Shown here: positions 9,303-37,634 of the stretch, piece by piece | Layout: every line of letters begins with the position of its first letter | Numbering within the stretch: the stretch's first letter is position 1 | Assembly (NCBI GenBank): GCA_965218095.1 | Contig: OZ244587.1 | Coordinates: forward strand, 5,280,001-5,344,000 | Origin: Candidatus Poribacteria bacterium | GTDB taxonomy: Bacteria; Poribacteria; WGA-4E; PCPOR2b | Reading direction: 5' to 3' | DNA: 64,000 nt | The notes under the pieces: generated by a model | Databases searched by the model: none | Told to the model about the DNA's origin: nothing | The model's input: only the letters and a program-made list of their open reading frames with translations | Program-made: the position numbers and the translations under genes

Positions 9303-9309
9303 TAGAATA

Positions 9310-10017
9310 ATGAAAAAGAAAAAAGAAAACTATTTTAAGTCGGAAGCAGAGAAAATTTACGGTGAAGTAAAAGGATCATATAACCAAAAGAGTATCAAAA
9401 AGAGAATCGAAGCTCTTTTCCTCGATAACCTCGGAAAGATTCTATTGAGAGAACAAATCATCGAAGTAGCTAGAGACCCGATAACCCAAAAGGATCCTGA
9501 AAATTGGCATCAGAGGTTATCGGAGTTACGAACCGATGATGGATACACAATTTTGTCGTGGCGCAATCGGGGCGATCTAAAAATTCAAGAATACCTTATG
9601 CCTACCTCTGAAAAAAGGCAGCGAATCAACAGGAGGGTTCGTCCACATGACGAAGTATGGTTACAGATATTGGAAAAGGCGAATTACTCTTGTGAATGGG
9701 ATGAGGATGGTATTCGGTGTGAACTTGAGGATGGGCAAATAGATCCGATCGGAGGAGGCACCGTAAAACTGACGCCAGATCATAAGTCGCCACATTCCAT
9801 AAACGTTGAAACTGATCCAGACGATCCCAATCAATGGAGAGTCTTATGTGGGCGACATCAAGTCATGAAAAAGAATTTTTGGGATGATAGTACAGGTAAA
9901 ATCAATGTTTATGCTATTGTTCAAGCTGCAAGTAAAAAGGAAAAGCGGATTGTCTTTTCTTTTCTCCTAGATTATTTTGGGTATCAAATCAATGACGGGA
10001 AATTGGAGAAGGAGTAG
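9310..10017 (+). CDS. KpnI-like HNH Type II restriction endonuclease
   Basis: RIEALFLDNLGK, PENWHQRLSELRTD, DPIGGGTVKLTPDH and LCGRHQVMKKN.WD closely match R.KpnI as I recall it; adjacent to a methyltransferase. Confidence 0.85.
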   Translation: MKKKKENYFKSEAEKIYGEVKGSYNQKSIKKRIEALFLDNLGKILLREQIIEVARDPITQKDPENWHQRLSELRTDDGYTILSWRNRGDLKIQEYLMPTSEKRQRINRRVRPHDEVWLQILEKANYSCEWDEDGIRCELEDGQIDPIGGGTVKLTPDHKSPHSINVETDPDDPNQWRVLCGRHQVMKKNFWDDSTGKINVYAIVQAASKKEKRIVFSFLLDYFGYQINDGKLEKE

Positions 10018-10019
10018 GT

Positions 10020-10826
10020 ATGACTCAAATGACTTTCACGGCACTCGATAAAGTCACGCACAATAACGGAACTAAAAAGGGGAATGCTGTCATACTACCA
10101 CCGATGGATATATTTGAATCTATTGAATTGATTAAATCAACTGGTATTAAGCCGCGTGTCACAATGCTTGATCCCTGGTATAACAAAGGTTTTGGAGAAA
10201 TAAGAGATGATTACAATGATTTTGTTATATCCATACTCGAAGCCCTTATTGGTATCTCCGAGCATGTATTTTTGTGGGGTTTTCCTGAGATTATAGCTCA
10301 GTATTTTAATCGTATACCGACTGAATACCAGCTTGTTGCGTGGCTCACTTGGTACTATAAGAATAATCCATCTGTTATCCGAGGTTGGCGATCGAGTCAG
10401 AATACTTGCTTGCATCTTTCTCAGGGTGATACAAAGTTATATCCCGAACACTTTTTGAATGACGCACAAAAAGAAAAGCTAAAAGCAGGAAAGCTAAGAT
10501 ATATGCCAGGTCCAACGAGTGTCATAGAAGCCGCCTTATTGGTAGGCTTTGTGGGCAAGGATGAGCAGACGGGGCATCCATCTCAAAAACCGTTAAAAGT
10601 ATACGAGCCGCTTTTCTTCATGACGACAAAAGAAGAAGATTTAATTTATGACCCCATGTGTGGGTCTGGTACTACAGGTGCATTTGCATTGAAACATAAT
10701 CGGGCTGCAATTTTATCAGACATCAACGAGGAATATATTTCTATCGTTGAGTCGAGGCTTCTAGAAAAGAGGATTCATTCTAACAAGACATTGCCTTCAG
10801 CGCTTACAACTACGCTGCAAGCGTGA
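10020..10826 (+). CDS. Beta-class N6-adenine/N4-cytosine DNA methyltransferase
   Basis: Motif IV variant DPWY precedes HPSQKP and motif I DPMCGSGTT. Confidence 0.9.
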   Translation: MTQMTFTALDKVTHNNGTKKGNAVILPPMDIFESIELIKSTGIKPRVTMLDPWYNKGFGEIRDDYNDFVISILEALIGISEHVFLWGFPEIIAQYFNRIPTEYQLVAWLTWYYKNNPSVIRGWRSSQNTCLHLSQGDTKLYPEHFLNDAQKEKLKAGKLRYMPGPTSVIEAALLVGFVGKDEQTGHPSQKPLKVYEPLFFMTTKEEDLIYDPMCGSGTTGAFALKHNRAAILSDINEEYISIVESRLLEKRIHSNKTLPSALTTTLQA

Positions 10827-12821: not shown

Positions 12822-13619
12822 CTAGTTCATACGGGGTAGGCGGCGGGATTGCTCGATGACGGTCCGATCTGATTTGGTCGAACACCAGTGAGATAGCGGA
12901 ACTTCTTCCTGTTTTTCCTTGATCTCTTTGGATTTGCTGTTGGCAAGGAGGTATGCTATAGAGGCGGGATGGAATGGTTTGTTTTTGGCGAGATAACAGT
13001 CACTGTTTTGACGAAAGCCCTCTGAGTAAGCAAAATATTTAATCTGTCCCTTTTCAGAAAATACAATCGCACAGACATGTTGACTCAAGCGGATGTAGCG
13101 AATGGATGTGCTTGTCAGAGAGGTAGAATACCTGCCAGCAAGCGTGTCGATTGCTGGCAAACCGGCTTCAGGCAGATCGGCTGCATCTGCTTGAAAAATC
13201 GGATACGGCATCAGCAACTCAACCGCGAATTGATTGGCACGCTGTTCCTCCAATCGGTGCGAATCAAACCCACGCAGATCCTCGCGCTGGCAGCGATGCT
13301 GTACGGTTCGCCCCCCATCTAGGTGGTAGTGCCCTAACTCGTGAGCGATTGTAAAGTTCTTCCGGGACTGCGATTGAATCAGGCTGTTGAGCAAGATGCC
13401 CCAGGCGTCACCGACTCGCATCAGGCAGCCGTCGTACCGGCTTTCCATTTCACGTTCCCAAACAACGATCTGGAGTTGCGCCGCGATTTTTCGGGGTTGA
13501 ATCGGGATGGCCTGGGCGTTTAATTCCCGCAACAACTGTTGCGCTTGCTCTGCGGGCTCTGGAGCTAGCTTGGACATCTGTTTTGAAATTTGATGTTTTT
13601 GGGGAGGTGGCTGATTCAT
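12822..13619 (-). CDS. ImmA/IrrE-family Zn metallopeptidase (CapP-like)
   Basis: NFTIAHELGH (HExxH), EQRANQFAVELLMP and a GAF-like tail; the C-terminus may be truncated. Confidence 0.88.
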   Translation of the reverse strand: MNQPPPQKHQISKQMSKLAPEPAEQAQQLLRELNAQAIPIQPRKIAAQLQIVVWEREMESRYDGCLMRVGDAWGILLNSLIQSQSRKNFTIAHELGHYHLDGGRTVQHRCQREDLRGFDSHRLEEQRANQFAVELLMPYPIFQADAADLPEAGLPAIDTLAGRYSTSLTSTSIRYIRLSQHVCAIVFSEKGQIKYFAYSEGFRQNSDCYLAKNKPFHPASIAYLLANSKSKEIKEKQEEVPLSHWCSTKSDRTVIEQSRRLPRMN

Positions 13620-13621
13620 GC

Positions 13622-13978
13622 TCAGTCCGCAGATACTTCATTACTTTCCTGTTTCTTGTTCTTGTCTCTGAGAAATTCGTAGAATTCGAGCATCGTCTCC
13701 TTATCTTTTTCCGAGAGCTCCATGATGCCCCTGAACATAACACTGACCTTCGGATCCGCTAAAAGATCGTCGTAGCTCTGCTTCTTTTTACCAAGCAGAT
13801 AGTCTGTCGTCACTTTCAGCGCGTCGGCGAGACTCGAAAGTGTATCGAATGACGGTTTACGGGTGCCGGACTCAAACTGTGAGATGGCCGCAGGTGTTAG
13901 CGTCGCAGATTTGGCGAGTTGCGTCTGTGTCATCTTGAGATCATCCCGGCGTTTCTTAATGCGTGCTGCAACAGACAT
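13622..13978 (-). CDS. XRE-family HTH repressor
   Basis: MTQTQLAK..LTPAAISQFESGTRKPS..LADALKVTTDYLLG. Confidence 0.93.
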   Translation of the reverse strand: MSVAARIKKRRDDLKMTQTQLAKSATLTPAAISQFESGTRKPSFDTLSSLADALKVTTDYLLGKKKQSYDDLLADPKVSVMFRGIMELSEKDKETMLEFYEFLRDKNKKQESNEVSAD

Positions 13979-14198
13979 GATTGCATATCTCCTTTCGTAT
14001 GAGTTGGGTTAGGAAGTTAACGAAAACAAAAAGGGTAATCTTCAAAGAATTCCCTAACAATTGTAACATACATTTTAACACGTGCTTCAATTTAATGCAA
14101 GGTATTATGACAGAATTACAGAGATATTAACGCAAATTTAAAAAGGGGTTGCAATCCTACCCGACATTTACTTTTGTGAATTAGATCCGTTTTGCGCC

Positions 14199-14227
14199 TT
14201 GACAAGAATTCCTGACTATGATAGAAT
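14199..14227 (+). promoter_or_regulatory. Sigma70-type promoter of the giant permease operon
   Basis: TTGACA-17 bp-TAGAAT with an extended -10 TG; GGAGG RBS before ATG 14273. Confidence 0.75.
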
Positions 14228-14272
14228 CTGAAGAAAGTTCAATAAAATACACCTTTTCCCGGAGGGGGCATC

Positions 14273-17200
14273 ATGATTAAGAGGTATTCGTACATCGGTT
14301 TATGGCTTTGCTTGCTTATTCTATCGTCTACGTATGTCTGTCTTGCTGCCGACGATCAACTGTTAGTCAGTCTTTCGGAGACCGCTGTCAAAATTCATGA
14401 CGAAGTCGACATCGGCCGGATCCGAAAGGACATCGCTCGGCTATCCAATCTGTCTACCCGCGTTACTGGCTATTCCGAATCTGCCTCCGCTAGCAAATAC
14501 ATCTTTGATCGATTCGTCGAAATCGGATTACAAAATGTAGAAAGCCGCGAATTCCCAATCTCCGTCCCGATTGACCACGGTGACGGAAAGGTAGACCTCC
14601 TCTCCGAAGAGGGCACTGTTCTAAAGACTTACAAAATCTGGCCCCTCTGGCCCAACCTTGTCCGTACCTCCCTCCTGCCTGACGGCATTTCTCATCTTGT
14701 AGGTGAAGGAGAGACCCTTGAGGGAATTGCCAAATCCTACCAGGTGGACCCACAAGCCATTTTAGCTGACCCTCACAACCAATACCTCCGCGATCAAGTG
14801 ACCGACAGCCGGGATAACGATGGTGATGGTGAAATTGATGAACCGGGCGAGTTGGCGCTTGTCGAAGGCAATCCCGTCTTCATCCCCACCGGTGGATTGA
14901 CGGTTCCTCTCTTCTATGGAGGAAAAGGTGAACTCGCTGACTTTAACGGCAAAGATATCGGGGGATTTTGGTACAAAATTCAACCCGGTGATACGCTGGA
15001 GGACATTGCTCACCGTTTTCGCATCGGCGCCGGGAGCATCACCGATGACGTTCTTAATAGTCATCTCCAGAAGACTGAAGACGGCATTGACAACGACGAA
15101 GATGGACAAATCGATGAATACGGAGAGATCCCCCCGCTGACAGAAATCTTGTACTGGGATACCGACGGCATCGACAACGATAGGGATGACTTCGCAGATG
15201 AACAGCCCGGTGATAACACTGACGGCGTTGATAACAACAACGACGGTCAGATTGACGAAGATGGCGAATTTGTCGCCGCTTCCGAATCCAGCATTTTTAT
15301 TCCCCAGGGCAGCGTCGTTCTGATTGACTTCAACTCCAGCACCAAATGGATTAACGCCGCGATGCTTGGGGCGAAGGCGGTGATCTTCATTGAGCCGGAG
15401 ACCACGATTCGTGGGGAAGCCGAGAACAAATTCCTGACCGTCCCTGCCAACATTCCTCGCTTCTGGATTTCTAAGGCAGATGCTGACGAACTCCTCGCCA
15501 TGCTTGGGGAAGTTCCCCACCTGTCCCCTCCAACAGGGGAGGGAAAACAGGAGGGAGGTCTCTCCGTTCGTCTCACCTGCACTATCACCTGGGAACGGTG
15601 CATCGGGCAAAATATCCGTGGCTTTCTTGAAGGTGGCGATCCTGCTTTGAAAGATGAACTGGTCGTGATCACCGGCTACTACGACGCAATGTCTGTTGTT
15701 CCTGCGATGGCGCCTGGCGCTGATCCCACCGGCGGGATTGCCGCGCTTCTGGAACTTGGGCGCATCTTCAGCCAAGAGAAATTCCGTCCGGGTCGGTCCT
15801 TCCTCTTCGTTGCAACGGATGCCCACTTCCAGGGATTAGCCGGCATGCGTGCGTTTATGGAGGGGATTGGTCAGGATATTGTCGGACGAGAATCGGACTC
15901 TCCCGGCACCCCCACAATGCGTGGGCTACGGCGTGGCTTAAGCGCGGATCTTTTTGAATTTGAAGAACTTGGGCGGAAATTGCTCCTTTCTATCGATCGG
16001 AACGTGCTGGTTGACCTTCCCTCGGATTTCTTCTACGAAGTCCACCAGTTTGATGCGGATCTCGACTCCCTGATGACTACTCTCACTCACCTTGAGCAGA
16101 CGCGGGGAAAAATCGACGGGTTGCGCAACGCCCAGCGTGATGCGAAGGAGAAAGAAAAGAGAAAACTGGAAACGGCCAAGAAGCGGGAGAAGCAGGGGTT
16201 TACTGAGGAGGAGAAGTCCCGGCTCGAAGTCAACCTCGCGAAGTTCAAGAAGGACGTGCTTCAGACGGCCCAATTTCTCCGGTTGATGGTCCGCCGGATA
16301 ACGTGGATGCGCGCCCAGGCGTTGAATGAATCCCGAAAGGTGCAACATGAGTTGATTGAACAAATCGCTTTGCCGATGGCTCGTTTAGATGAATGGGCAA
16401 TCGGGCGATTGGAAGCGGATTTGGCAGCGCAGCAAATCGGCGGGAAGTATGATCAGACGCCGGACAGCAGCTATTTGAAGCCGGAGAAAGGAGCGGATGG
16501 GAGCTTTTATCTGCCGGTTCCTGGGAATGTGCCGCCAATCCTGAAAGCGGATGTCGAGATGCTGTCCAGGGCTTTGGAAGACTGGGAATTTAAGGATTCG
16601 CGGAAATTCACTCTCCAGTATGCTCAGGAGCGCCTGCTAGACCGTCACCTTGATTTTAATGGACTGGAACAGATGAAGCAAGCCCGCAAGGTGGTTCACC
16701 GTGCTACGAAAGACCTCTCGGAATACATCGCCGTTGAGCAGCAACTTCTCGAAAAAGTCCTCGCCCAGATTCCTACTGACAGTGGTGCAGAGACCCGCAT
16801 CAAAAACACCATCATGCAGTTAGAGGGGGACCCCGCTTCCGTCCCCAAGGACCTGATCGTTGAGCTGAAGCTTTTCCTCAACGAGCCAACCCTGAAGCGA
16901 TTCGAGGTCATTCAGAACCAGCTCCGCCAGAAATTGGCCATAATGGATGAAACAGGAACGGCGACTTCACGTGAGTTGGACGCTGTCCTGATTGCCGACC
17001 TCACCCGAGACAAACAGAACATACTCGAAATCGCCATGCGCAACGCCCGCCTTGAACGACAGCGGATCGAATTCCTGCTGGAACGTCACGATTCGCTGAT
17101 CCGCCCTTATCTCGCCGAGGAGACGCTTGTTCTACGCCACCACCTCCCTGACGATGTGGTTGATCTCGCGATGGAGGTCCGGGCCCAGATCTTTGCCCAC

Positions 17201-20200
17201 CTTGAAGAAGAGCGCCTGCTGAAGATGGTGAAGAAGCGAGCGAAGAATGATATTGTCGATCTCCAGAACCTGTTGAATGTCCTCAACCGTCTTGATCACG
17301 ATCTTGATGAGGACACCAAGATTCTCCTGCGTGATAACCTGCTTACGATGCGCAACGCCCGATTCCGTAATCTGCAGAAGCGCGTCGAAAAGATTGCACG
17401 CATCAGCGAACCGGAATACAATCGGAAGGTCCGGTCGATTGAACAAGCGATTGCGCTGCAAGACCTCTTCAACCGTTACTACACCTCCCTTTTTATTGCC
17501 ATTGACCTTTCCAGCCAGAGCGACAAATTCGGCGTTTTCAACAAAGGCTGGTTCTACAACCAACAGCCTGAATTTGTGTTACGTCGCGAGTTCGCTTCCA
17601 TCGGCAACAGGCTCATGGAGTATGCGAATCAAGCCGATTTCGGTGAGCGCATCGGGAAGCTGTGGACCTTTACTGATGACCAGATCCGACAGGCGGTGAT
17701 GAGCAGCCAATGGGAGGTCGGGTCCGATATTGAGTCGAAACGGATAATTGAAGGTAAGTCGTTGGAGACCCTGATCGCCGAACACTACGACACATTGGTT
17801 GGGCTCTCCGGTGTCTCTCGCCTGATGAAGATGCAGTTTGAACAGATGAAAAACCAGGGGGAACCCTCCGAAGATATGCTCAAGGATATGGACTATATCC
17901 GCAAAGAGGTGGAGCGATTTATCCGCAACGACATACGTGAAGCGCGAAAGAACCGCAAAAATAAGATTCGTCTCCTCAATCGGCTAGATGCCATGCTCGC
18001 CCTCCGCCACGAGGATGCATCCGCGTTGACCGAAGAAGAAGTCGAGGATATCAAGACGCTCATCGACATCGTGGGCCTGGGCGGCGAAACGAACTTCGTC
18101 AACGCCATCTCCGCCAGTGGTGGCAAAATTTGGAGGACATACATCCCCGGCAAGATTGCCTTCGACAGCGAAGTAGCAACCCTCACAGGTTTTACCGGCA
18201 TCGCCTTTGCCACGATCGACGATGCCCGAATCCTGACCGACACCCCGCTCGACACCATCAACCGAATGGATCTGCGAGAAGATGGCGCCCTGCATAAGCA
18301 GGTGAAAACCCTTGCTGCTGTCCTCATCCAAGCGATGCGTGATCCGAAGATGCCCACTACCGCTCGGGTTGGGAACTTCTACTGCAATCTCTTTGGCGAC
18401 GTGGTGGAGTACGATGCCCGCGAGAGCGCACTTCCGAACAAGCCGGTCCCTTACCCCGTCCTCACCCTGCGGCGAAAGCACAAAACCATGATGGGGGTCC
18501 GCGGCGACCTCTTTGCAATAGGGGACAACAAAGGGAATTTTGAGGTCGCGGGGCTCGCGATGGAAGGACGCGCCACGTACCGCATTGGTGGAAAACAGGA
18601 GGTGGAAGCGTACATCCTTGACCCTGATTCCGGCGATATTGTCTACGCGCCGGACCTCGGCAACTTCGGAGCTAAACTCTTGCCAAACCTGGTACCCATC
18701 AACACGCACCGTCGTGGATGTCGAATTGTAGTCTTCCCATGCGTGTCCACTACCATCTACGATCTTGTAGATCAGCGTTATCTGCGCACACTACGGGAGC
18801 TAGAGGTCTTCAATGCGGTCAGCGATAGTACGCCAGAAAAATATGGGATGTCAAAGCCGTGGCAGCAAGAAGGGATCTCTGCAACGGAGCCGCTTGCGCT
18901 GGTCTATTCCGAACCAAACACCCGAATCAAGATCGGCATGGCGTATGGACAGATAGGCAAACGGTTGCTGCTGATTAAGGCAGGCAAAAGTGGAACAAAG
19001 AATCCTACGCTCTATACCGGGGATGGCTTTGTAGTGCGGGAAAACGGAAGCATTCGTGTGACCCCTTACGTCGTCGTGCGCGATATGTGGTGGCTTGATG
19101 AAAACCGGAGTAGTCTTTACAAACGCTTCGGCATCAGCAGCGATCGCCTCGACCAACTTCACCAGTTTGCCAATGAACATCTGGATCAGGCAGAGATTGC
19201 CCTCACCCAAAAAGACTATCAGCAGGCGCTTAAGCTTGCCCGCGCCGCCTGGGGATACGAATCTCGCGCTTATCCCGATGTGAAAAAGACCGGCAATGAC
19301 GTGGTCAACGGTGTGATGTTCTACCTTGCCCTCCTGATACCCTTTGCCTACTTTATGGAACGGTTGCTGTTTGCCTTCCCCACCGTACACAAGCAGATTA
19401 TCGTGACCTTCGCAATCTTCCTCGTGGTGTTCTTCTTCCTTTCGCAGGTGCACCCCGCATTTCAGATTACCACAACGCCGATTATCATCCTGATTGCGTT
19501 CATTGTCCTCGCGTTGACGGCGCTCGTGATTAGCATCATTATCCGGAAGTTTGAAGAACAGGTAGAAAAAATCAAGCAGGAAAGCTCAAAGGTCTATAAG
19601 GCAGATGTTGGTCGCCTTTCCGCTTCCGCCGCTGCCTTCAGTTTGGGTGTCTCCAATATGCGTAAGCGGAAAGGGCGTACCATCCTCACCTGTACCACAC
19701 TGGTCATTCTGACCTTTACGGTGATCTCCTTTACGTCGGTGCGCACCTTTATGCACCCTAACAGTACCAACCTTCCGTCGGTGACGCCGCGCTATACCGG
19801 GATGCTCATCCGCGATCAGTATTGGAGTCCCCTTGAGGAGCCGGTCATCACCTCGATTCTAAATGACATGCGGAAAACGCAGATTCCTGAAAAGAACTTG
19901 CGGTTGCTGCTGAAAAAACAGAAATCTCCAGAGGAAGTTACATCCATCTTTGCCGACCTGCGGCGGCAGGGGGCGTTAATCAATCTTGGCGGTGAGTCCG
20001 TATTGCGAGTCTACAACGTCGTCGCGCCGCGGGCGTGGTATCAGTCCGCTGGCACAGGTAATCAGTCATTCGTGCAGTTGACACGTACCCCCAATTCGAT
20101 GGATGCCGCGCCGCCGGTCGAACTCGCAACCGGTCAGCCGAAAACCTACTCCGCCACTATGCTTGTCGGCATGACCCCGGATGAACCCGGCGTCACGGGG

Positions 20201-21661
20201 ATTGACCGCTACCTTCAGTACGGTAAGTGGTTTAATCCGGCCGATGAAGTGGAATGGCCAACACAGTGGCCCTACGCTTGCGTGCTGCCCAAGGGTATGG
20301 CAGATCTGCTCGGCATCACCGAGGAAGATATGGGCAAAGCGACCGTATCCGTGTACGGTGCGAATTTCACCGTCACCGGTGTCCTCGGTATTGGTTTCAA
20401 AGATCTGCACGATAACGATGGCGAGGAACTTACGCCCGTTGATTACCAACTGATGCAGCAGCAGGAAGCGCGAGGTGGTGGACAACAGGGGAATCAACCC
20501 GTCGAAGGGGAGTTGGAGAAGTACATTCATCTTCCCCCTGATAGTGTTGCTATCCTGCCGTATAATGTGGTGATGAATCAGGGCGGGACGTTGCGCTCGG
20601 TCGCTGTCAACATGGAGCCACCGCCCGGCGATCCGGCGATCCCGCGCGCCGCCGATAGGCTTGACCTGATCATGGGACCGCTTATGAGCCGAATTGCGCT
20701 CGACTTCTTCGTCGGCAAGGATCGCGATACCTATCTCTACAGCTCAATCGGGATGACCTCTTTCTCCGGAATGGGGAACCTGTTTGTGCCGATCCTGATC
20801 GCGGCGCTGATTGTGCTAAACACGATGCTCGGTGCGGTCTATGAGAGAGTCCGAGAAATCAGCATCTATAGTTCTGTGGGACTTGCTCCTGTGCATATTG
20901 CTTTTCTTTTCCTTGCGGAGGCATGCGTGTACGCAATTATTGGTGCGGTGCTCGGCTACCTGCTCGGTCAGGCCGTTGCCACTATCCTGGTCAAATTCGC
21001 CTTTCTCGCTGGACTGACCCTCAACTACTCATCGATGTCAACAGTGGTAGCAACTATTATTGTAATGATTGTTGTTATCGGAAGTACGCTCTACCCCGCG
21101 ATTAAAGCAAGTCGAATGGCAGTCCCCGACATTGAGCGGAAATGGAAATTACCGGAACCTGATGGCGATGAATGGCACTTCGATCTCCCCTTCACTGTGC
21201 TGGTGGAAGAAGCACTCGGCTTGAATATTTTCATGCGGGATTACTTTGAAGCGCACGCCGACGAATCTGCAAGCGACTTCTATACGGACCAGGTTGCCTT
21301 TGGTCGGACCCCCGTGGCAATCGAAGGGAGAGAGGATGAGGCCTACAATATCGGCATGATGGTTTGGCTCGCCCCGTATGACCTCGGGGTCAGTCAATCC
21401 ATTCGGCTTGTGACCTCACCGGTCGGTGGAGAAGAGGAAGAACTCTACAAGATTAACCTTGATGTCCATCGAGAGAGTGGAGAGATCGCCTCGTGGAAGC
21501 GCGTCAACCGTCGCTTCTTGAACCTTGTCCGAAAGCAATTGCTGATTTGGCGGACGTTTAGCGCCGATGTCCGTGGTGAATTCCATGAACGTGGGCGGCA
21601 AGAGAGTGAAGCAGAAGCCGCGCCGAGCGTTGGCGGTTTGGCGCCCCAGCCAGCAGATTGA
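14273..21661 (+). CDS. 2462-aa membrane-anchored fusion: degenerate M28/PA peptidase fold with 2 LysM, DxDxDG Ca-type repeats and a long helical insert, plus MacB/FtsX-type permease
   Basis: Signal peptide; TRVTGY; LysM-like HLVGEGETLEGIA and YKIQPGDTLEDIA; repeats DGIDNDEDGQIDE; M28-like VITGYYD..PGAD..GIAALLE; TM cluster; FtsX motif VYERVREISIYSSVGL..FLAEA. Confidence 0.85.
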   Translation: MIKRYSYIGLWLCLLILSSTYVCLAADDQLLVSLSETAVKIHDEVDIGRIRKDIARLSNLSTRVTGYSESASASKYIFDRFVEIGLQNVESREFPISVPIDHGDGKVDLLSEEGTVLKTYKIWPLWPNLVRTSLLPDGISHLVGEGETLEGIAKSYQVDPQAILADPHNQYLRDQVTDSRDNDGDGEIDEPGELALVEGNPVFIPTGGLTVPLFYGGKGELADFNGKDIGGFWYKIQPGDTLEDIAHRFRIGAGSITDDVLNSHLQKTEDGIDNDEDGQIDEYGEIPPLTEILYWDTDGIDNDRDDFADEQPGDNTDGVDNNNDGQIDEDGEFVAASESSIFIPQGSVVLIDFNSSTKWINAAMLGAKAVIFIEPETTIRGEAENKFLTVPANIPRFWISKADADELLAMLGEVPHLSPPTGEGKQEGGLSVRLTCTITWERCIGQNIRGFLEGGDPALKDELVVITGYYDAMSVVPAMAPGADPTGGIAALLELGRIFSQEKFRPGRSFLFVATDAHFQGLAGMRAFMEGIGQDIVGRESDSPGTPTMRGLRRGLSADLFEFEELGRKLLLSIDRNVLVDLPSDFFYEVHQFDADLDSLMTTLTHLEQTRGKIDGLRNAQRDAKEKEKRKLETAKKREKQGFTEEEKSRLEVNLAKFKKDVLQTAQFLRLMVRRITWMRAQALNESRKVQHELIEQIALPMARLDEWAIGRLEADLAAQQIGGKYDQTPDSSYLKPEKGADGSFYLPVPGNVPPILKADVEMLSRALEDWEFKDSRKFTLQYAQERLLDRHLDFNGLEQMKQARKVVHRATKDLSEYIAVEQQLLEKVLAQIPTDSGAETRIKNTIMQLEGDPASVPKDLIVELKLFLNEPTLKRFEVIQNQLRQKLAIMDETGTATSRELDAVLIADLTRDKQNILEIAMRNARLERQRIEFLLERHDSLIRPYLAEETLVLRHHLPDDVVDLAMEVRAQIFAHLEEERLLKMVKKRAKNDIVDLQNLLNVLNRLDHDLDEDTKILLRDNLLTMRNARFRNLQKRVEKIARISEPEYNRKVRSIEQAIALQDLFNRYYTSLFIAIDLSSQSDKFGVFNKGWFYNQQPEFVLRREFASIGNRLMEYANQADFGERIGKLWTFTDDQIRQAVMSSQWEVGSDIESKRIIEGKSLETLIAEHYDTLVGLSGVSRLMKMQFEQMKNQGEPSEDMLKDMDYIRKEVERFIRNDIREARKNRKNKIRLLNRLDAMLALRHEDASALTEEEVEDIKTLIDIVGLGGETNFVNAISASGGKIWRTYIPGKIAFDSEVATLTGFTGIAFATIDDARILTDTPLDTINRMDLREDGALHKQVKTLAAVLIQAMRDPKMPTTARVGNFYCNLFGDVVEYDARESALPNKPVPYPVLTLRRKHKTMMGVRGDLFAIGDNKGNFEVAGLAMEGRATYRIGGKQEVEAYILDPDSGDIVYAPDLGNFGAKLLPNLVPINTHRRGCRIVVFPCVSTTIYDLVDQRYLRTLRELEVFNAVSDSTPEKYGMSKPWQQEGISATEPLALVYSEPNTRIKIGMAYGQIGKRLLLIKAGKSGTKNPTLYTGDGFVVRENGSIRVTPYVVVRDMWWLDENRSSLYKRFGISSDRLDQLHQFANEHLDQAEIALTQKDYQQALKLARAAWGYESRAYPDVKKTGNDVVNGVMFYLALLIPFAYFMERLLFAFPTVHKQIIVTFAIFLVVFFFLSQVHPAFQITTTPIIILIAFIVLALTALVISIIIRKFEEQVEKIKQESSKVYKADVGRLSASAAAFSLGVSNMRKRKGRTILTCTTLVILTFTVISFTSVRTFMHPNSTNLPSVTPRYTGMLIRDQYWSPLEEPVITSILNDMRKTQIPEKNLRLLLKKQKSPEEVTSIFADLRRQGALINLGGESVLRVYNVVAPRAWYQSAGTGNQSFVQLTRTPNSMDAAPPVELATGQPKTYSATMLVGMTPDEPGVTGIDRYLQYGKWFNPADEVEWPTQWPYACVLPKGMADLLGITEEDMGKATVSVYGANFTVTGVLGIGFKDLHDNDGEELTPVDYQLMQQQEARGGGQQGNQPVEGELEKYIHLPPDSVAILPYNVVMNQGGTLRSVAVNMEPPPGDPAIPRAADRLDLIMGPLMSRIALDFFVGKDRDTYLYSSIGMTSFSGMGNLFVPILIAALIVLNTMLGAVYERVREISIYSSVGLAPVHIAFLFLAEACVYAIIGAVLGYLLGQAVATILVKFAFLAGLTLNYSSMSTVVATIIVMIVVIGSTLYPAIKASRMAVPDIERKWKLPEPDGDEWHFDLPFTVLVEEALGLNIFMRDYFEAHADESASDFYTDQVAFGRTPVAIEGREDEAYNIGMMVWLAPYDLGVSQSIRLVTSPVGGEEEELYKINLDVHRESGEIASWKRVNRRFLNLVRKQLLIWRTFSADVRGEFHERGRQESEAEAAPSVGGLAPQPAD

Positions 21662-21744
21662 AACGTAATGGAGATGTACTCATCATTACAGTTACCCTTA
21701 TTCCCTTGCTCAACCATATCCTATCAAATCCGGTCTTTGCTCAA

Positions 21745-22103
21745 GAAAGAGAGAAGGTTGTTTGGGTCCTAGTGGCTTCGATGTTTCTGATTACCTCGGG
21801 ATGCGGCGAACCTGAGGAACCTATCGGGGAGGATGACGTCAAGCCAAAGCCCGTTACGAATTTCCTATTTATGAACCACCAGATGGTAGTTTCGTTGTCA
21901 ACATACCTGCTGCATGCGGTCGTGAAGCTGTGTATCCCACGGTAGAACTGTTTTTTGACCGGACACCCGCCTCTATTCGCGTGAACGGTACTTCTGTTGA
22001 GGCGGGGGTTTGGAAGGCGATAGGGGCAAAACCCGCCGAAAGGCAAGGAACTGGTCAATGGAACAACCTACTAGGGGATGTTCAAAGATGCCGAAGGAAA
22101 TAA
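21745..22103 (+). pseudogene. Possible degraded lipoprotein gene
   Basis: Lipobox-like LITSGC followed by an apparent frameshift near 21865 (continuing YEPPDGSFVV...); no clear start. Confidence 0.3.
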
Positions 22104-22154
22104 ATGGGAGATCAAATTTACATTTACGACCAAAAATGATTAGGAGAAAACAAA

Positions 22155-22322
22155 ATGGAGAAATTGGCATACGGTTTAATCTTTATCGGTGCGGTGCTTT
22201 GGGGCTTTTCGATTCTTTTTATGGAAGGGCGATGGCAGCCACAAATACTAGCTGCAGTTATTCTAGCCGTTGGAATCTTGGTTGCTCACATTTGGGAGGA
22301 AAGCTTCCGGGCAAAAAAATAA
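22155..22322 (+). CDS. 55-aa two-helix membrane protein (below the ORF-track cutoff)
   Basis: AGGAG RBS; MEKLAYGLIFIGAVLWGFSILFMEGRWQPQILAAVILAVGILVAHIWEESFRAKK. Confidence 0.6.
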   Translation: MEKLAYGLIFIGAVLWGFSILFMEGRWQPQILAAVILAVGILVAHIWEESFRAKK

Positions 22323-22392
22323 GTGAATCGGCAAATAGGCGAAACAAGATTCGTGAATTCGTTGTTCGCAGATTCTTGAAAGGAGAACAGGT

Positions 22393-24387
22393 TTGGCAAG
22401 AGAGAGAGTGTCGCAGGCAGAAGAGTGGCAAGCTTGGGCGCAGCGGTATGATATTGATGGTGGGATTCGGACCTTTGAATCTGGCTTAACCCTTAAAGTC
22501 TTTTTAGGCGCCCTTTTTGTCGGGCTATTGATGATGCCAGGTTCAATTTATCTGACTTTAGTGTCCGGTCAATCGGGTGCAGGCGCCGCCCCCTGGGTAG
22601 CGGTCATCCTGTTTACGGAATTGGCACGCCGATCCTTTACCACAGCGAGACGGCAAGAGCTTTACATGTTGCTCGGGCTCACCGGCGCCGCGGTCGGTTC
22701 TGGGGATCAATATCGGGGCTTCATCTGGAACGCCTTCTTTATTCAGACACAGCAGGCGGAATCGTATGAAATTGCAGACAAAATACCCTTTTGGATTGCG
22801 CCCTCGCAGGATTCGATTGCGCTTGCAGAGAGATTGCTTTTACATATGGACTGGTTTTGGCCGATCGTGATCTTTCTGATCATGAAACTGCTTGGAACGA
22901 TCCGAAGTATTAGTGCAGGATATTTTCTGTTCCGTCTCACGGCGGATTTGGAGCGCCTTCCTTACCCGCTGGCGCCCATTCAAGCTCAAGGCGCAACTGC
23001 CTTAGCGGAGACCACCGGTCGGGCAGAAACGTGGCGTTGGCGTGTGTTTTCCGTTGGGTCAATGGTAGGCCTGTTCTGGGGATTTCTCTATATCGGTATT
23101 CCCTCCCTCACCGGGGTGATGATGTCACAACCGATTCAGATTCTGAAAATTCCATTTATCGATTTTACACCGAGCATTGAAGGGTTCGCCCCGACGGGTG
23201 TGTTTGCGCTATCGACCGACTTCGGACAAATGCTTATAGGTTTCGTCCTGCCGTTCCCTGTCATCATGACTGAGTTTGCTGCGGCGCTCTTTACCCAGTT
23301 TATTCTGAACCCACAAATCCTTTATCCCACTGAGATCTTACATCAGTGGCGTGCCGGCTTGGATGTGCGTGGGGTTGGATTGTTTAATGGCCTTGATTTC
23401 TGGATTAGCTTCGGGATGGGGAAGGCCTTTAGCTTTGCTGTTGTCGGCCTAGCGGCTTCCATTCCGATGGTGCTGGTGCAGATGCGAAAAGGAAGACAGT
23501 CTGGCACGAGTGCACGCGGTTCACTGCGGCCTCCCCCAGGGCGTGGAGATTTTCCACTTTGGCTGATGGGAGGGCTATGGATACTTGGCATGGGAGTTTT
23601 TGTGTGGCTCGTGCATTGGATGGTGCCGAACTTCCCGCTGGCATTCCTGGTCGGCTTTGCCTTCGTGTATACCCCCCTTCATTCCTACATCAATGCTAGA
23701 ACTTTTGGTGTTTTAGGGAGGCCTCTCTTTGACATCCCCTATATCCACGAAACCACGTTTATTTTAAGTCGCTATGAGGAGATCGACATCTGGTTTGCTC
23801 CGCTGCCTGATGAAGACTACGGCGCTGGTACGCAGCATTGGCGAGTGCTTGAACTGACCGGCACAACCTTCACCAGTAATATTGCCGCGCATCTGATAAT
23901 GATGCCGATTCTGCTCATTTCTGGAATCATCGTTTGGCATTTCATCTGGAAAATAGCGCCAATTCCTTCTTCTCAATATCCGTTTGCACAAACGTGGTGG
24001 CCAATCTACGCGACCAACGAATGTCTCTGGAAAACCTCACTTCGCGATGGAAACAGCCAAATGCTACAAGCCATTCGTGGTGATTACGTGGCGGCTGGCT
24101 TCACCTCTTCGCTGGCAATCTACGGTTTGCTTTGGGTGGCTAAGATGCCAAGCATGTGGTTCTATGGCCTCGTTGGTGGGATTGGCGCCGACCCAGGGAT
24201 GATGATTCCACGAGTTTTGGGTGCAGCCATCGGTAGGTTTTACATGATCAAGCGATTTGGTCTGAAACGATGGTTCATGTTTAATCCTGTCCTGGCAGCA
24301 GGCTTTACTTGTGGCGTTGGACTGGTTGGTATGGGGACTGTTGCGATTGCGCTGGTTTCCAAAGCTGTGATTGTCAAACCTTTTTGA
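22393..24387 (+). CDS. OPT-like oligopeptide transporter (polytopic membrane protein)
   Basis: AAGGAG RBS and TTG start; many hydrophobic helices; OPT-like GLTLKVFLGALF..IYL..G and ERLPYP..A segments. Confidence 0.78.
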   Translation: MARERVSQAEEWQAWAQRYDIDGGIRTFESGLTLKVFLGALFVGLLMMPGSIYLTLVSGQSGAGAAPWVAVILFTELARRSFTTARRQELYMLLGLTGAAVGSGDQYRGFIWNAFFIQTQQAESYEIADKIPFWIAPSQDSIALAERLLLHMDWFWPIVIFLIMKLLGTIRSISAGYFLFRLTADLERLPYPLAPIQAQGATALAETTGRAETWRWRVFSVGSMVGLFWGFLYIGIPSLTGVMMSQPIQILKIPFIDFTPSIEGFAPTGVFALSTDFGQMLIGFVLPFPVIMTEFAAALFTQFILNPQILYPTEILHQWRAGLDVRGVGLFNGLDFWISFGMGKAFSFAVVGLAASIPMVLVQMRKGRQSGTSARGSLRPPPGRGDFPLWLMGGLWILGMGVFVWLVHWMVPNFPLAFLVGFAFVYTPLHSYINARTFGVLGRPLFDIPYIHETTFILSRYEEIDIWFAPLPDEDYGAGTQHWRVLELTGTTFTSNIAAHLIMMPILLISGIIVWHFIWKIAPIPSSQYPFAQTWWPIYATNECLWKTSLRDGNSQMLQAIRGDYVAAGFTSSLAIYGLLWVAKMPSMWFYGLVGGIGADPGMMIPRVLGAAIGRFYMIKRFGLKRWFMFNPVLAAGFTCGVGLVGMGTVAIALVSKAVIVKPF

Positions 24388-24521
24388 AGATAAGTTCACG
24401 AGTTCAGGAGTTTATTGGTTCAAGATGAGTTTATTCGTTTAGAGATCTATCAAAATCTGACAGTCAAACCCATGACCCATCAACCAATGAACTACTGAAC
24501 CAATGAACTCATAGACCTATC

Positions 24522-25451
24522 ATGGAATGGACAACCTTAGGATGGAGTGGCATTACCCTCAAAACCCCTGCGGACTGGGAACTGAGTGGATTATCCGGTG
24601 ACGATAAAAGTGGGTACTTGCGCCTGGATGATGCGGAGATGCCGCGCCTGGAGTTAAAGTGGTCTGAGTCAAAGAAGAAGAAGCCAGACCTCCAGCGTGT
24701 CCTCGATGAATATTTTAAGCTCGTTCGCAAAAATTACAAACGTAAAGAGGCACACCTTCACATTCAGCGCAATGTCAATCTTATCAAAGATGAGGGGTTC
24801 TTCGAGGGGCGAGAGGTCGTTTTCTTCAGTTGGAAGGGGGAGTATCGGGCAGGCGGCGTCATCTTCCACTGCCACACCTGCAGGCGAATCACAATTGTGC
24901 AGGTGATGGGACATCTCAAGGAGAATCTCCGCGCAAAAACAACCCGCATCCTAGGTTCCATTCAAGATCACCCAACAGGGCAGACAACGCCGTGGAGCGC
25001 CTACCAACTCAATGCAGAAATCCCGCGACGGTACCGTCTCGACAAGCATCAACTGTTGTCCGGCTACCTGCTTTTTTCATTTGTAGATGGAAGTCGTAAG
25101 GTCAGCATTGAGCGGTATGGGGTGGCAGACGTTGTGCTAAAGGAACATGACCTTGAGTCCTGGTTCCGAGCAAAATACGCCAAAGCTATTCGCGGGTACG
25201 GTTTCTCAATTGAAACTAGCCGGGACAATGTAGACGAACGATTAACGCTGATCGGTGGGCAAACCCGCATTATAGATCATATCCCCATGGCTCCCGTCCT
25301 GATTATTGATAAGGTGATGCGCCGCAAAACCTTCGCCGTTTACCTGTGGCGATGCCATCGCTCAAATCGAATTTACGTTGTTCAAGCTATCGCCAAACGC
25401 GATGCAGCCAAGACCGCTGAGGAGATTGCGGCGAGCATTCGGTGTCATTAA
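24522..25451 (+). CDS. Hypothetical soluble protein with an internal two-fold repeat
   Basis: WSGITLKTPADWEL..SGYLRL and WSAYQLNAEIPRRYRL..SGYLLF; each half ends near a C/H-containing segment (HCHTC; RCHR..RCH). Confidence 0.75.
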   Translation: MEWTTLGWSGITLKTPADWELSGLSGDDKSGYLRLDDAEMPRLELKWSESKKKKPDLQRVLDEYFKLVRKNYKRKEAHLHIQRNVNLIKDEGFFEGREVVFFSWKGEYRAGGVIFHCHTCRRITIVQVMGHLKENLRAKTTRILGSIQDHPTGQTTPWSAYQLNAEIPRRYRLDKHQLLSGYLLFSFVDGSRKVSIERYGVADVVLKEHDLESWFRAKYAKAIRGYGFSIETSRDNVDERLTLIGGQTRIIDHIPMAPVLIIDKVMRRKTFAVYLWRCHRSNRIYVVQAIAKRDAAKTAEEIAASIRCH

Positions 25452-25466
25452 AACAGGAACACACGA

Positions 25467-25503
25467 ATACAGGATACAGGATACAGGATACAGGATACAA
25501 GAT
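25467..25503 (+). repeat. Heptamer tandem repeat (ATACAGG)x~5
   Basis: atacaggatacaggatacaggatacaggatacaagat. Confidence 0.9.
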
Positions 25504-25646
25504 GCAGATTGCTTGCATCGCGATTTATCGGGGTTATCCCGATCTTTGGATAGGGGCTCAACTTGAATCTTGCATCTGACGGGAATTGGTGTTAATTTCC
25601 ATTTGTCCCCTTTATATATTTTACGCAATACGCATCGCGTTTTACC

Positions 25647-26066
25647 ATGATCAACCCAATACTTTACAAGCTCAGACTCAAAAAACGTCCAGATTCCGAA
25701 TTTGAGCGGGCGGATATTTTAAAATCATTACCGCTCCACAACGAGTTAATCGAATGGGAAGTCGATGATAAGGAGGAAGTTTCGCTGGTTATTCCTCAGA
25801 AGGAGACACTGTGGATACGGCTGGTTGCAAAGCTTTTTATGTTGCCCGGCAAGCGTGTGGTTGTCTTAGACGATGTTGGGTCTTATGTGTGGCAATTGTG
25901 TGATGGGCATAATTCCATCGGCCAGATTATCAAACACCTTTGTGGGAAATACCGTATGACGAGAAAAGAGGCAGAGACATCGCTGTTCACCTTTATGCGT
26001 CAGTTGGGTAAGCGGGGCATGGTCGGCTTTGCGGTTCCCCAAAAAACGAAGAAAGGAAAAAAGTAA
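25647..26066 (+). CDS. PqqD-family / RiPP recognition element-like protein
   Basis: VVLDDVGSYVWQLCDGHNSIGQIIKHL..Y..EAETSLFTFMRQLGKRGMV winged-helix pattern. Confidence 0.85.
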   Translation: MINPILYKLRLKKRPDSEFERADILKSLPLHNELIEWEVDDKEEVSLVIPQKETLWIRLVAKLFMLPGKRVVVLDDVGSYVWQLCDGHNSIGQIIKHLCGKYRMTRKEAETSLFTFMRQLGKRGMVGFAVPQKTKKGKK

Positions 26067-26897
26067 ATGGCAGAACTTGAGCAAGCGATAGATCCGGAAG
26101 CAATACCTGTGGATGGTGTTGTTCCAACCGAAACCCCCGAACGATTGAAGAGAGACCTACCGAAGGAAAATACGGTACGCGTAAGAAACCTGATTAAAAA
26201 ATATGAAATGGGCTCTAGCGTTGTTGAGGCGTTACGAGGCGTCAATTTTGAAATTCGCCGAGGAGAGTACATCTCGATTATGGGACCATCCGGCTCCGGT
26301 AAATCGACGCTGTTCAACATGATAGGCGGCCTGGACAAGCCAACGGAGGGCAGAGTCTACATTGATGAGGTAGATATTGCACAGTTAGATGCGTATGAAT
26401 TGGCGTGGCTGCGCTGCCGTAAGATTGGCTACATTTTCCAGGCATTCAACCTGATTCCAGTGATGACAGCCCTCGAAAATGTCTCTCTGCCCATGATCTT
26501 TGCCGGTATGACGGCTGATGATAGCCGCGAAAAAGCTGTTGATTTGTTAACCCTTGTCGGGTTAGGAGAGCGCGTGCGACATAAACCGCTTGAACTCTCC
26601 GGCGGTCAGCAACAGCGCGTCGCTGTTGCGCGTTCGCTTGCAAATAATCCGGCGATTGTGCTTGCAGATGAACCGACGGGAAACTTGGATACAAAGACTG
26701 GGCTTGAGATCATCGACCTCCTGAAAAGTTTGAATGAGGAAAATGGAGTGACGATTATTACCGCCACACACGACACAAAAATGCTCGATGTGTCGGATCG
26801 AATCTTCTACATGGGGGATGGTAGGGTCGATAAAATTGAGACACGCGAGGAAATTGATTTGCAGGTCGGTAGGCTTGACGGTGAGGAAGTGGGATAG
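26067..26897 (+). CDS. LolD/MacB-type ABC transporter ATP-binding protein
   Basis: GPSGSGKST, LSGGQQQRVA, LADEPTGNLD and ATHD motifs. Confidence 0.96.
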   Translation: MAELEQAIDPEAIPVDGVVPTETPERLKRDLPKENTVRVRNLIKKYEMGSSVVEALRGVNFEIRRGEYISIMGPSGSGKSTLFNMIGGLDKPTEGRVYIDEVDIAQLDAYELAWLRCRKIGYIFQAFNLIPVMTALENVSLPMIFAGMTADDSREKAVDLLTLVGLGERVRHKPLELSGGQQQRVAVARSLANNPAIVLADEPTGNLDTKTGLEIIDLLKSLNEENGVTIITATHDTKMLDVSDRIFYMGDGRVDKIETREEIDLQVGRLDGEEVG

Positions 26898-27151: not shown

Positions 27152-27436
27152 ATGGCAGAAGTTTTTATGAAGATAAAAGTTGAGATGCTGGAAGAAGGAG
27201 GCTACTTGGCAGCCAGCAATGAGTTGCAAGGGTTGGTCGCGTATAGGCGCACGGTGGCGGAAACGCTGGAGATAGCACAAGATGTAGCACGAAAACTCAT
27301 TGAATCGTGCATAGAACATGGGAATTCGCTTCCTCCGAGTGTGCTAAGTGTGCAGCAGGATGCTTCGCCGCGCCGCCACTGTCAGACAACGGTGAAAGTC
27401 CCGGTGGCCATCGAACTAAAGGAAGCAGCTGTATAA
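27152..27436 (+). CDS. HicB-family antitoxin (orphan)
   Basis: EEGGYLA..LQGLVA..TVAETLEIAQDVARKLIE..G..LP pattern. Confidence 0.75.
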   Translation: MAEVFMKIKVEMLEEGGYLAASNELQGLVAYRRTVAETLEIAQDVARKLIESCIEHGNSLPPSVLSVQQDASPRRHCQTTVKVPVAIELKEAAV

Positions 27437-37475: not shown

Positions 37476-37634
37476 GTCCTACTCCAGCCCTCTTGTCTTG
37501 ATGAAGTGATACAGTGTCAACTTGTGAACACCTGTTACCTTCGCTATCAATGCTTGACGAGTACCTTTCAATTTTTATCCTTCTTTCCCCCTCGGCATTA
37601 AAGAGGTAAACATCGTCGGCTATAATACGAATTT

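Follow-up and report, generated by a model that had tools for sequence, protein, structure and literature searches.

Genes of the locus

The window analysed here is a stretch of 64,000 nucleotides (G000:C1:5280001-5344000) from the 6.35-Mb single-contig genome of a Candidatus Poribacteria bacterium, a sponge symbiont. It contains a putative operon encoding a giant permease of the MacB/FtsX class, a membrane protein with a predicted OPT/YSL fold, and four smaller proteins. The six open reading frames (ORFs) occupy positions 14273-26897 of the window, all in one orientation on the + strand. The first encodes the giant permease (2462 amino acids, 14273-21661). It is followed by the genes for a 55-aa membrane protein (22155-22322, with an AGGAG motif 8 nt 5' of the ATG), a 664-aa polytopic membrane protein of predicted OPT/YSL fold (22393-24387, with a TTG start), a 309-aa cytoplasmic protein predicted to consist of tandem PsbP/Mog1-like domains (24522-25451), a 139-aa protein of the PqqD family with a basic N-terminal extension (25647-26066), and a 276-aa ATP-binding cassette (ABC) ATPase of the MacB/LolD type (26067-26897). 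PqqD-family proteins are also known as recognition elements (RREs) of peptides made on ribosomes and modified after translation (RiPPs). The ATG of the ATPase begins at the base directly following the PqqD stop codon. The six co-oriented genes and this tight junction had already been described in a first-pass annotation of the sequence, and both are borne out by the ORFs.

Architecture of the giant permease

According to a hydropathy scan, the giant starts with a signal or anchor segment (aa 8-26), which is followed by about 1650 residues on the outside. Three extra transmembrane (TM) helices (aa 1677-1755, 19301-19537, from the same scan) and a short cytoplasmic linker precede the FtsX module (19679-21118), which comprises TM1 (aa 1803-1821), a domain of roughly 350 residues in the periplasm, and TM2-4 (aa 2171-2273). 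A tail of about 190 residues after TM4 is predicted to be cytoplasmic. The topology predicted in this way is self-consistent. The FtsX model of Pfam (PF02687) matches at aa 2172-2282 (1.5e-12, 48.1 bits, cut-off 25.5), and MacB_PCD (PF12704) at aa 1939-2041 (1.1e-5, 26.3 bits, just below the cut-off of 27). As judged from these sequence hallmarks, the giant is a type VII ABC permease, i.e., a member of the MacB/FtsX class.

The outer part of the giant comprises a PA domain (aa 344-407; 2e-4, 21.8 bits, below the cut-off of 23.9) and the N-terminal half of an M28-like domain (aa 447-530), together located at 15302-15862. The match to Peptidase_M28 (PF04389; 1e-5, 25.8 bits, cut-off 21.3) covers only positions 1-78 of the 193 positions of the profile. 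Upstream of the PA domain, a LysM motif (aa 234-257, 14972-15043, Pfam 5.5e-8) is surrounded by an acidic region of D-x-D-x-D-G repeats (aa ~130-345), with motifs such as DNDGDGEID and DNDEDGQID. 3' to the N-terminal half of the M28-like domain lies a charged, Leu-rich insert of about 730 residues (aa ~560-1290, 15950-18142; K+R 16%, D+E 17%, L 13%), which, judged by its composition only, is probably helical or a coiled coil. Relatives of the giant measure 1450-1830 residues in distant metagenome loci vs about 2400-2500 in Poribacteria, and the surplus of about 900 residues corresponds to the acidic D-x-D-x-D-G/LysM region and the charged Leu-rich stretch. Neither the LysM motif nor this insert was found in the five distant giants scanned.

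The cytoplasmic C-terminal domain (aa 2291-2462, 21143-21658) matches no named family and is the most conserved part of the giant, with 41-49% identity in most of the distant loci. When clusters formed at 50% identity were searched with this domain, 1351 cluster representatives matched at E<=1e-3, of which 829 reached E<=1e-10. The rows inspected place the domain at the C-terminus or close to it, and most of the full-length proteins have 1450-1900 residues. Such giants are publicly annotated as 'LysM peptidoglycan-binding domain-containing protein', 'M28 family peptidase' or 'hypothetical protein'.

The H-x-D, G-A-x-D, and E-E motifs of M28 peptidases contain zinc ligands and the catalytic Glu. 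In order to compare these three motifs, a short relative of the giant was aligned to the aminopeptidase 2ek8 and the motifs were then read in 53 giants, in 50 of which the pattern located the site. The His of H-x-D is replaced by Tyr or Phe and the E-E pair by a His and a non-acidic residue ([AG]H-x) in all 50, and an Asp or Glu is kept at the G-A-x-D position (PGA[DE]) in the same 50. The corresponding motifs of the giant in the window are YYD, PGAD, and AHF. Since the M28 motifs of all 50 giants are non-canonical, the ectodomain is predicted to be a conserved pseudo-peptidase. A distant giant aligns to the aminopeptidases 2ek8 and 6hc6 and also matches nicalin by sequence (1.4e-3). Nicalin is a dead M28-like protein of the endoplasmic reticulum.

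The OPT-fold protein, its relatives, and the 55-aa protein

No Pfam or NCBIfam model matches the 664-aa protein in its own right. The OPT family model PF03169 gives a 16.7-bit match limited to the C-terminus and is reached by just two of the 15 family members, and a profile of 15 homologues had no match at E<=1 among the PDB sequences. The AlphaFold2 model, built from 52 sequences, has a predicted local distance difference test (pLDDT) of 82.5 and a predicted template modelling score (pTM) of 0.81. When it was searched with Foldseek, barley YS1 (7wst_A/7wsr_A) was the unique match (E 6e-9, TM-score 0.57/0.62, 695 columns), the runner-up having an E of 0.027 and a TM-score of 0.11. The earlier description of this protein as OPT-like is therefore right at the level of the fold, but membership in the family is not supported by sequence models. 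Based on its structural model, the protein is assigned to the OPT/YSL fold.

In the Atlas, the 664-aa protein adjoins clusters in which 15-33% of the members carry OPT and which are labelled Lentisphaerota, Armatimonadota, and Planctomycetota; in a comparison with DUF6785/DUF6784 (PF20581/PF20580), its feature score is 0.87. The genome of the window has 15 matches to DUF6785, corresponding to about 13 full-length genes of 635-690 codons, some with internal stops; examples are found at G000:C1:5383587-5385083 (L167), 4731921-4733411 (L172), and 4650697-4652157 (L174). The 13-14 DUF6785/DUF6784 paralogues adjoin genes for sulfatases, FGE-sulfatase (maturase), BNR, GH43-like, and PhyH dioxygenase proteins, as well as GFO/MocA, hydantoinase, M24, and M55 genes. 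An uncharacterised transporter family related to OPT has thus undergone a large expansion in catabolic clusters. A general rule placing OPT-fold or DUF6785 genes beside FtsX was rejected, as in this genome an FtsX gene is found at a distance of about 12-14 kb or less solely for the copies near 2.03 Mb.

The window has a single OPT-like gene. Close relatives in a sister genus carry a tandem duplicate, which is 82% identical to the 664-aa protein (L008:7916-9913 and L009:4592-6589), and in L009 the two copies are separated by an inserted DNA methylase gene and a PD-(D/E)XK gene.

The 55-aa protein has two TM helices according to the hydropathy scan. In 73 of 74 Poribacteria loci, the OPT-like gene is preceded by a homologue, and none was seen in the distant loci; by this distribution, the protein appears to be specific to Poribacteria.

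Conservation and layouts of the gene cluster

Two sets of loci were compared. The Poribacteria set comprised 75 loci from a search of genome contigs, the best 80 matches of which were all from Poribacteria. The distant set comprised 80 metagenome loci around OPT-fold relatives at 39-48% identity, for which the only guides to the phylum are Atlas cluster labels and a few source names.

The gene order giant, 55-aa protein, OPT-like protein, 309-aa protein, PqqD, and ATPase is maintained in the Poribacteria loci. The C-terminal domain of the giant is encoded at most 3.5 kb 5' of the OPT-fold gene in 69 of 74 loci, and the five misses are due to inserted DNA or to a duplicated OPT-like gene (verified only in L008 and L009). 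The genes of the 309-aa protein, PqqD, and the ABC ATPase lie downstream in 68/68 loci. The OPT-like gene is present in 147 of the 151 Poribacteria genomes sampled and in 21 of 22 genera. Of the distant loci, 58 have enough flank, and in 57 of these the C-terminal domain of the giant is encoded directly 5' of the OPT-fold gene, at a distance of at most 3.5 kb. This synteny is far above chance.

Three layouts were observed in the distant loci. Layout A, found in 21 of the 36 loci with at least 4.5 kb downstream, comprises the giant, the OPT-fold protein, the 309-aa protein, PqqD, a small FtsX, and the ATPase. In layout B, the small FtsX and the ATPase are encoded 5' of the giant; in layout C, a DUF6785/DUF6784 gene lies upstream and there is no ATPase gene within reach. 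PqqD and the 309-aa protein are missing from layouts B and C. They were found together in 21 distant loci, and the 309-aa gene alone in one weak case. As the giant and the OPT-fold gene remain adjacent across the three layouts, they form the core pair, to which PqqD and the 309-aa protein are accessory in a single layout. The co-occurrence of the giant, OPT, PqqD, and ATPase genes expected from the first-pass annotation thus stands for the first two genes, and PqqD, like the 309-aa protein, does not belong to the core. These observations support the view that the giant and the OPT-fold gene belong to one conserved unit.

In layout B, the ATPases (L115, L116, L118, L123, L126, L128, L139) have an N-terminal extension of about 55 residues with a CP-x-C motif, resembling a zinc ribbon. 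The Cys-rich 309-aa protein and PqqD are missing from precisely these layouts. In two layout B loci (L139:12272-13871 and L118:12195-13967), two genes of the DUF1559/N-terminal-methylation type, which are prepilin-like, follow the OPT-like gene.

The ABC ATPase and the unlinked small FtsX

The Walker A, signature, Walker B, and H-loop motifs of the cassette ATPase are intact, and its best NCBIfam models are LolD, YbbA, DevA, and MacB, all below their equivalog cut-offs. This agrees with the initial LolD/MacB-type assignment.

The small FtsX encoded in layout A and layout B loci has 215-260 residues and is almost devoid of an outer loop. It is absent from the Poribacteria cassettes (0/68). The top homologue in the genome of the window maps to about 5.856 Mb, at a distance of some 550 kb from the cassette, and shows 49% identity over 210 residues (E 2e-51), the next matches being at about 1e-16. 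The small FtsX is single-copy in 41/41 Poribacteria genomes sampled and is unlinked to the cassette wherever coordinates were compared. The ATPase gene that follows it in the genome of the window encodes a protein 63% identical to the cassette ATPase. In a phylogenetic tree, the ATPase of the window and the cassette ATPases of the other layouts form one clade. The unlinked ATPase falls within this clade (support 84/89), where it groups with the non-Poribacteria ATPases (92/90, unresolved within); the tree separates it from five further MacB-type ATPases of the genome. Altogether, the genome has 17 other FtsX matches. Based on these observations, we infer that the permease is a heterodimer of the giant and the small FtsX served by two related ATPases. 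The operon had initially been regarded as a complete machine; this does not hold, as the small FtsX belongs to the cassettes of other lineages and is here encoded elsewhere with a paralogous ATPase.

The PqqD-like protein and its predicted partner

The 139-aa protein matches PqqD (PF05402; 3.6e-12, 46.9 bits, cut-off 23.4) and stays below all PqqD and lasso equivalog cut-offs of NCBIfam. The profile of its family matches the structures of lasso TbiB1 (5v1u, 1.7e-5) and PqqD (3g2b, 1.7e-4), as well as a lasso PqqD chaperone. The earlier assignment to PqqD is confirmed by the Pfam score and the profile matches.

The 309-aa protein matched no known sequence family and has no signal peptide. Its model (pLDDT 88, pTM 0.81) exhibits two tandem PsbP/Mog1-like domains, the first of which resembles 2xb3_A (Z 14.9, root-mean-square deviation 2.8, 138 aligned) and the second 5zxa_A (Z 11.6). 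With Foldseek, the model matched PsbP at E 7e-5; the comparison with SciW, an Eag-type chaperone of the type VI secretion system, gave a Z of 9.2. The duplicated-domain protein announced in the first-pass annotation is thus, according to the predicted structure, an internal duplication of one fold. Conserved Cys and His residues in the alignment are the CxxC motif at 116-119, C278, and C308-H309.

When the PqqD-like protein and the 309-aa protein were modelled together with both alignments, the interface score ipSAE was 0.71, vs 0.01 for the best of three controls. For comparison, 58 of 80 solved complexes attained such a value, as did two of 110 mismatched pairs. At least 97% of the contacts are common to the runs, with a partner pLDDT of at least 73. 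In the predicted interface, the invariant residues R106, E108, A109, E110, and S112 of PqqD and its basic N-terminus face a cleft of the 309-aa protein lined with the invariant N282 and R283. This prediction, which is a model confidence and not a measurement, supports binding of the two proteins to each other. Since the RRE is predicted to pair with the 309-aa PsbP-like protein, the previously suggested role of the RRE as a peptide adaptor is not established for the free protein. An N-terminal extension of the ATPase was also considered as ligand of the RRE and was dropped, as the layout A ATPases of other lineages have no such extension.

In RiPP pathways, PqqD/RRE domains bind leader peptides. 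No radical SAM, YcaO, or lanthipeptide enzyme is encoded among the 15 neighbouring ORFs scanned (8481-40970), and no RiPP enzyme or precursor in the ten distant loci annotated. The small ORFs in the spacers of the cluster have no conserved counterpart that would point to a precursor peptide. The lack of RiPP enzymes and of an evident precursor, already remarked upon in the first-pass annotation, is therefore confirmed. With neither a maturation enzyme nor a precursor next to the RRE, the interpretation of the locus as a RiPP gene cluster was rejected.

Promoter, RNA evidence, and surroundings

The top promoter-like site of the region (TTGACA-17-TAGAAT, with a TG-extended -10) is located at 14199-14227 on the + strand, 46 nt 5' of the ATG of the giant. 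It matches the consensus at 11 of 12 positions and is 86-87% conserved in three related loci (L017, L005, L068). These features are in line with the consensus promoter proposed initially, but the number of promoter-like sites in the region, 12 vs a shuffle mean of 12.3, is at chance level.

In four sponge metatranscriptome libraries, contigs at least 95% identical to the window, mostly at least 99%, span the whole cluster. Two of them cross the stop of the giant (21496-21882 and 21627-21961), one joins the 55-aa gene to the OPT-fold gene (22277-22704), two join the OPT-fold gene to the 309-aa gene (24103-24664 and 24209-24546), and one joins PqqD to the ATPase (26029-26538). The upstream stretch 13000-14001 is nearly devoid of such contigs. 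Among the contigs listed, none crosses 21961-22277 or the 25451-25647 spacer, where the depth bins are low; this is neutral either way. All four libraries come from one study and could include carried-over DNA, and the contigs show the presence of the cluster in RNA libraries and no more than hint at co-transcription.

The borders of the cluster are set by a divergent XRE-family helix-turn-helix (HTH) gene (13622-13978, - strand) and an M78/ImmA-like gene (12822-13619) upstream, and by a convergent FAD/NAD oxidoreductase gene downstream. A divergent XRE homologue lies at most 1.2 kb from the start of the giant in 33 of 52 Poribacteria loci, and the M78/ImmA-like gene is retained at only four of the 52. 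The XRE-family HTH gene is a possible local regulator.

The giant and the 55-aa gene are separated by a spacer of 493 bp (21662-22154), for which neither the rest of the genome nor the fetched loci offer a counterpart; it measures about 120 bp in L008. It contains an ORF (21658-21945) with a lipobox-like LITSGC motif, which may be what is left of a lost gene. In the spacer that precedes PqqD and follows the 309-aa gene, the heptamer ATACAGG is repeated in tandem about five times (25466-25502), and parts of this spacer are found at three other sites of the genome with 75-94% identity. Just 3' of the cluster, a 94-aa ORF (27152-27436, + strand) resembles a HicB-type antitoxin in its sequence. 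Genes of mobile or defence type flank the cluster at 8481-10826, 33844-34383, and 36630-40970; they encode an IS4/5-family transposase, a DNA methylase, two rve integrases, and a 1111-aa PLD-SNF2 helicase protein.

Discussion

Tentatively, we read the operon as encoding most of a conserved type VII ABC mechanotransducer that would cooperate with an OPT/YSL-fold secondary permease in the uptake of peptide-like oligomers, an interpretation that we find plausible while falling somewhat short of probable. In this mechanism, the giant would provide one half of the permease and the small FtsX, whose gene lies some 550 kb off beside that of a paralogous ATPase, the other half. The PA and M28-like ectodomain, having lost its catalytic residues, could act as a receptor by analogy with nicastrin, nicalin, and the transferrin receptor, whose related domains are receptors. 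ATP binding and hydrolysis by the cytoplasmic MacB-type ATPases would shift the FtsX helices and thereby the ectodomain, which would catch a peptide-like oligomer in the periplasm and deliver it to the OPT-fold permease for import. The predicted cytoplasmic heterodimer of the PqqD/RRE and PsbP-like proteins might tune the motor, e.g., by sensing the imported peptide. The contact between motor and permease, the peptide-like nature of the substrate, the direction of import, and the regulatory role of the adaptors are what we infer here. Uptake was preferred as direction because of the biology of OPT/YSL transporters and because the DUF6785/DUF6784 paralogues are found in catabolic neighbourhoods; the DUF6785 gene that joins the cassette in layout C was counted in the same sense.

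A more ambitious version of this mechanism, which we regard as doubtful, is a hybrid between primary and secondary transporters. A heterodimeric MacB/FtsX mechanotransducer with two ATPases would be docked to the OPT-fold permease and use ATP for loading or gating, and the RRE-PsbP-like pair would be a brake that senses the substrate. Such a transporter would be a main route of oligomer uptake in Poribacteria and the other carriers of the cassette.

Several points weigh against ATP-assisted uptake through the OPT-fold protein. We know of no ABC mechanotransducer that feeds an importer, and the characterised type VII systems, in the parts of the literature consulted, expel, extract, or activate. 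The near-universal single copy fits a housekeeping role in the envelope as well as it fits nutrition. The link of the 664-aa protein to OPT is remote at the sequence level, and the alignment of its family with that of DUF6785 by hhalign is weak (probability 1.8, E 0.027), with the motif ERL(P/S)(F/Y)P aligned. Since the DUF6785 paralogues of this genome do not lie beside FtsX genes, an OPT-fold protein needs no ABC motor in general. Finally, an RNA contig covering two genes is not equivalent to a single transcript.

Three other explanations were considered. The combination of a degenerate peptidase domain, a long charged insert that is probably helical, and an FtsX module in the giant, together with its LysM motif, would suit a machine for envelope remodelling similar to FtsEX-EnvC. 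In such a machine, the FtsX module would move a peptidoglycan-binding degenerate peptidase on a helical stalk and thereby switch or position wall hydrolases, the OPT-fold protein would recycle stem peptides, and the RRE pair would handle them in the cytoplasm. EnvC, the partner of FtsEX, is an amidase activator under the control of ATP, according to the sections consulted of two articles (PMC7668044, PMC12505981), and the near-universal single copy in Poribacteria (147/151) suggests housekeeping. However, the LysM motif and the insert of about 900 residues are confined to Poribacteria and missing from the five distant giants scanned, no hydrolase gene is conserved in the cassette, and the 17 other FtsX matches of the genome could serve division. 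Overall, we consider envelope remodelling unlikely.

Export has a lower probability in our view and appears rather improbable. It would require the OPT-fold protein to carry a product to the periplasm and the MacB-type module to expel it across the outer layers, with the RRE reading the leader of a precursor encoded elsewhere. The leader binding known for PqqD-family proteins and the profile matches to lasso TbiB1 and PqqD structures would be explained in this way, and the cassette ATPase scores well against models of darobactin- and bacteriocin-export ATPases, albeit below their cut-offs. Nevertheless, the OPT-family members characterised so far are, to our knowledge, all importers, PqqD is absent from layouts B and C, and a synteny fixed in 147 of 151 Poribacteria genomes is unlike that of a natural-product cluster. 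MacB-type pumps such as MacAB-TolC do expel periplasmic substrates, as described in the part consulted of PMC5985334, but no gene for a membrane-fusion protein, an outer-membrane factor, a precursor, or a maturation enzyme was found in the cluster of the window or in the annotated loci. The third explanation, in which a MacB-type ABC system of the ordinary kind merely shares an operon with an unrelated secondary transporter, could be defended by the DUF6785 paralogues, which work without FtsX neighbours. It is highly improbable, as 57 of 58 distant loci, with protein identities of 39-48%, keep the two genes adjacent, and the adjacency persists across three gene orders.

The closest known kind of system is that of the type VII ABC systems, including MacAB-TolC, LolCDE, FtsEX-EnvC, and YbbAP-TesA. 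They share with the cassette the four-helix FtsX module, a predicted extracytoplasmic domain between TM1 and TM2, and the LolD/MacB-type ATPase. The two different permease halves, the giant and the small FtsX, would correspond to LolC and LolE, and EnvC likewise has a degenerate peptidase domain under type VII control, to which that of the giant can be likened. In contrast to these systems, the giant carries a PA/M28-like putative receptor, joined to its N-terminal side by way of three additional TM helices, as well as a conserved C-terminal domain in the cytoplasm, the OPT-fold permease is a constant partner, PqqD and PsbP-like cytoplasmic subunits are present, and no partner of the MacA/TolC type, of the LolA type, or of the hydrolase type is encoded nearby.

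The OPT family carries out proton-coupled uptake of oligopeptides or metal chelates. The model of the 664-aa protein has the overall fold of this family (PF03169, TC 2.A.67; barley YS1, 7wst), whose Pfam model two of 15 relatives reach, whereas the protein itself is below Pfam and NCBIfam detection and always encoded beside an ABC mechanotransducer. Similarly to nicastrin, nicalin, and the transferrin receptor, the giant would present on a membrane complex a PA and M28-like ectodomain without the canonical zinc and catalytic residues. Unlike them, it is bacterial, is fused to an ABC permease, and keeps a conserved set of Tyr, Asp/Glu, and His. The PqqD-PqqE and lasso B1-B2 pairs have in common with the pair described here the PF05402 domain and, according to the prediction, a small subunit bound to a larger partner; in contrast, the partner is here a tandem PsbP/Mog1-like protein and no RiPP enzyme or precursor is present.

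The full-text literature searches, as far as the texts were covered, returned no published system of such composition, in agreement with the first-pass annotation, which knew of no characterised one. Type VII ABC systems expel, extract, or activate in the envelope, and none is known to be paired with a secondary-transporter fold. A bacterial counterpart of the dead-peptidase receptors of the nicastrin/nicalin type would be new, and the cassette offers a setting outside RiPP biosynthesis for the RRE domain, with a predicted new partner fold. As this set of genes is large and widespread, with 829 clusters, 147 of 151 Poribacteria genomes, and presence in RNA libraries, it probably represents a major, so far unstudied, envelope function of abundant uncultivated bacteria.

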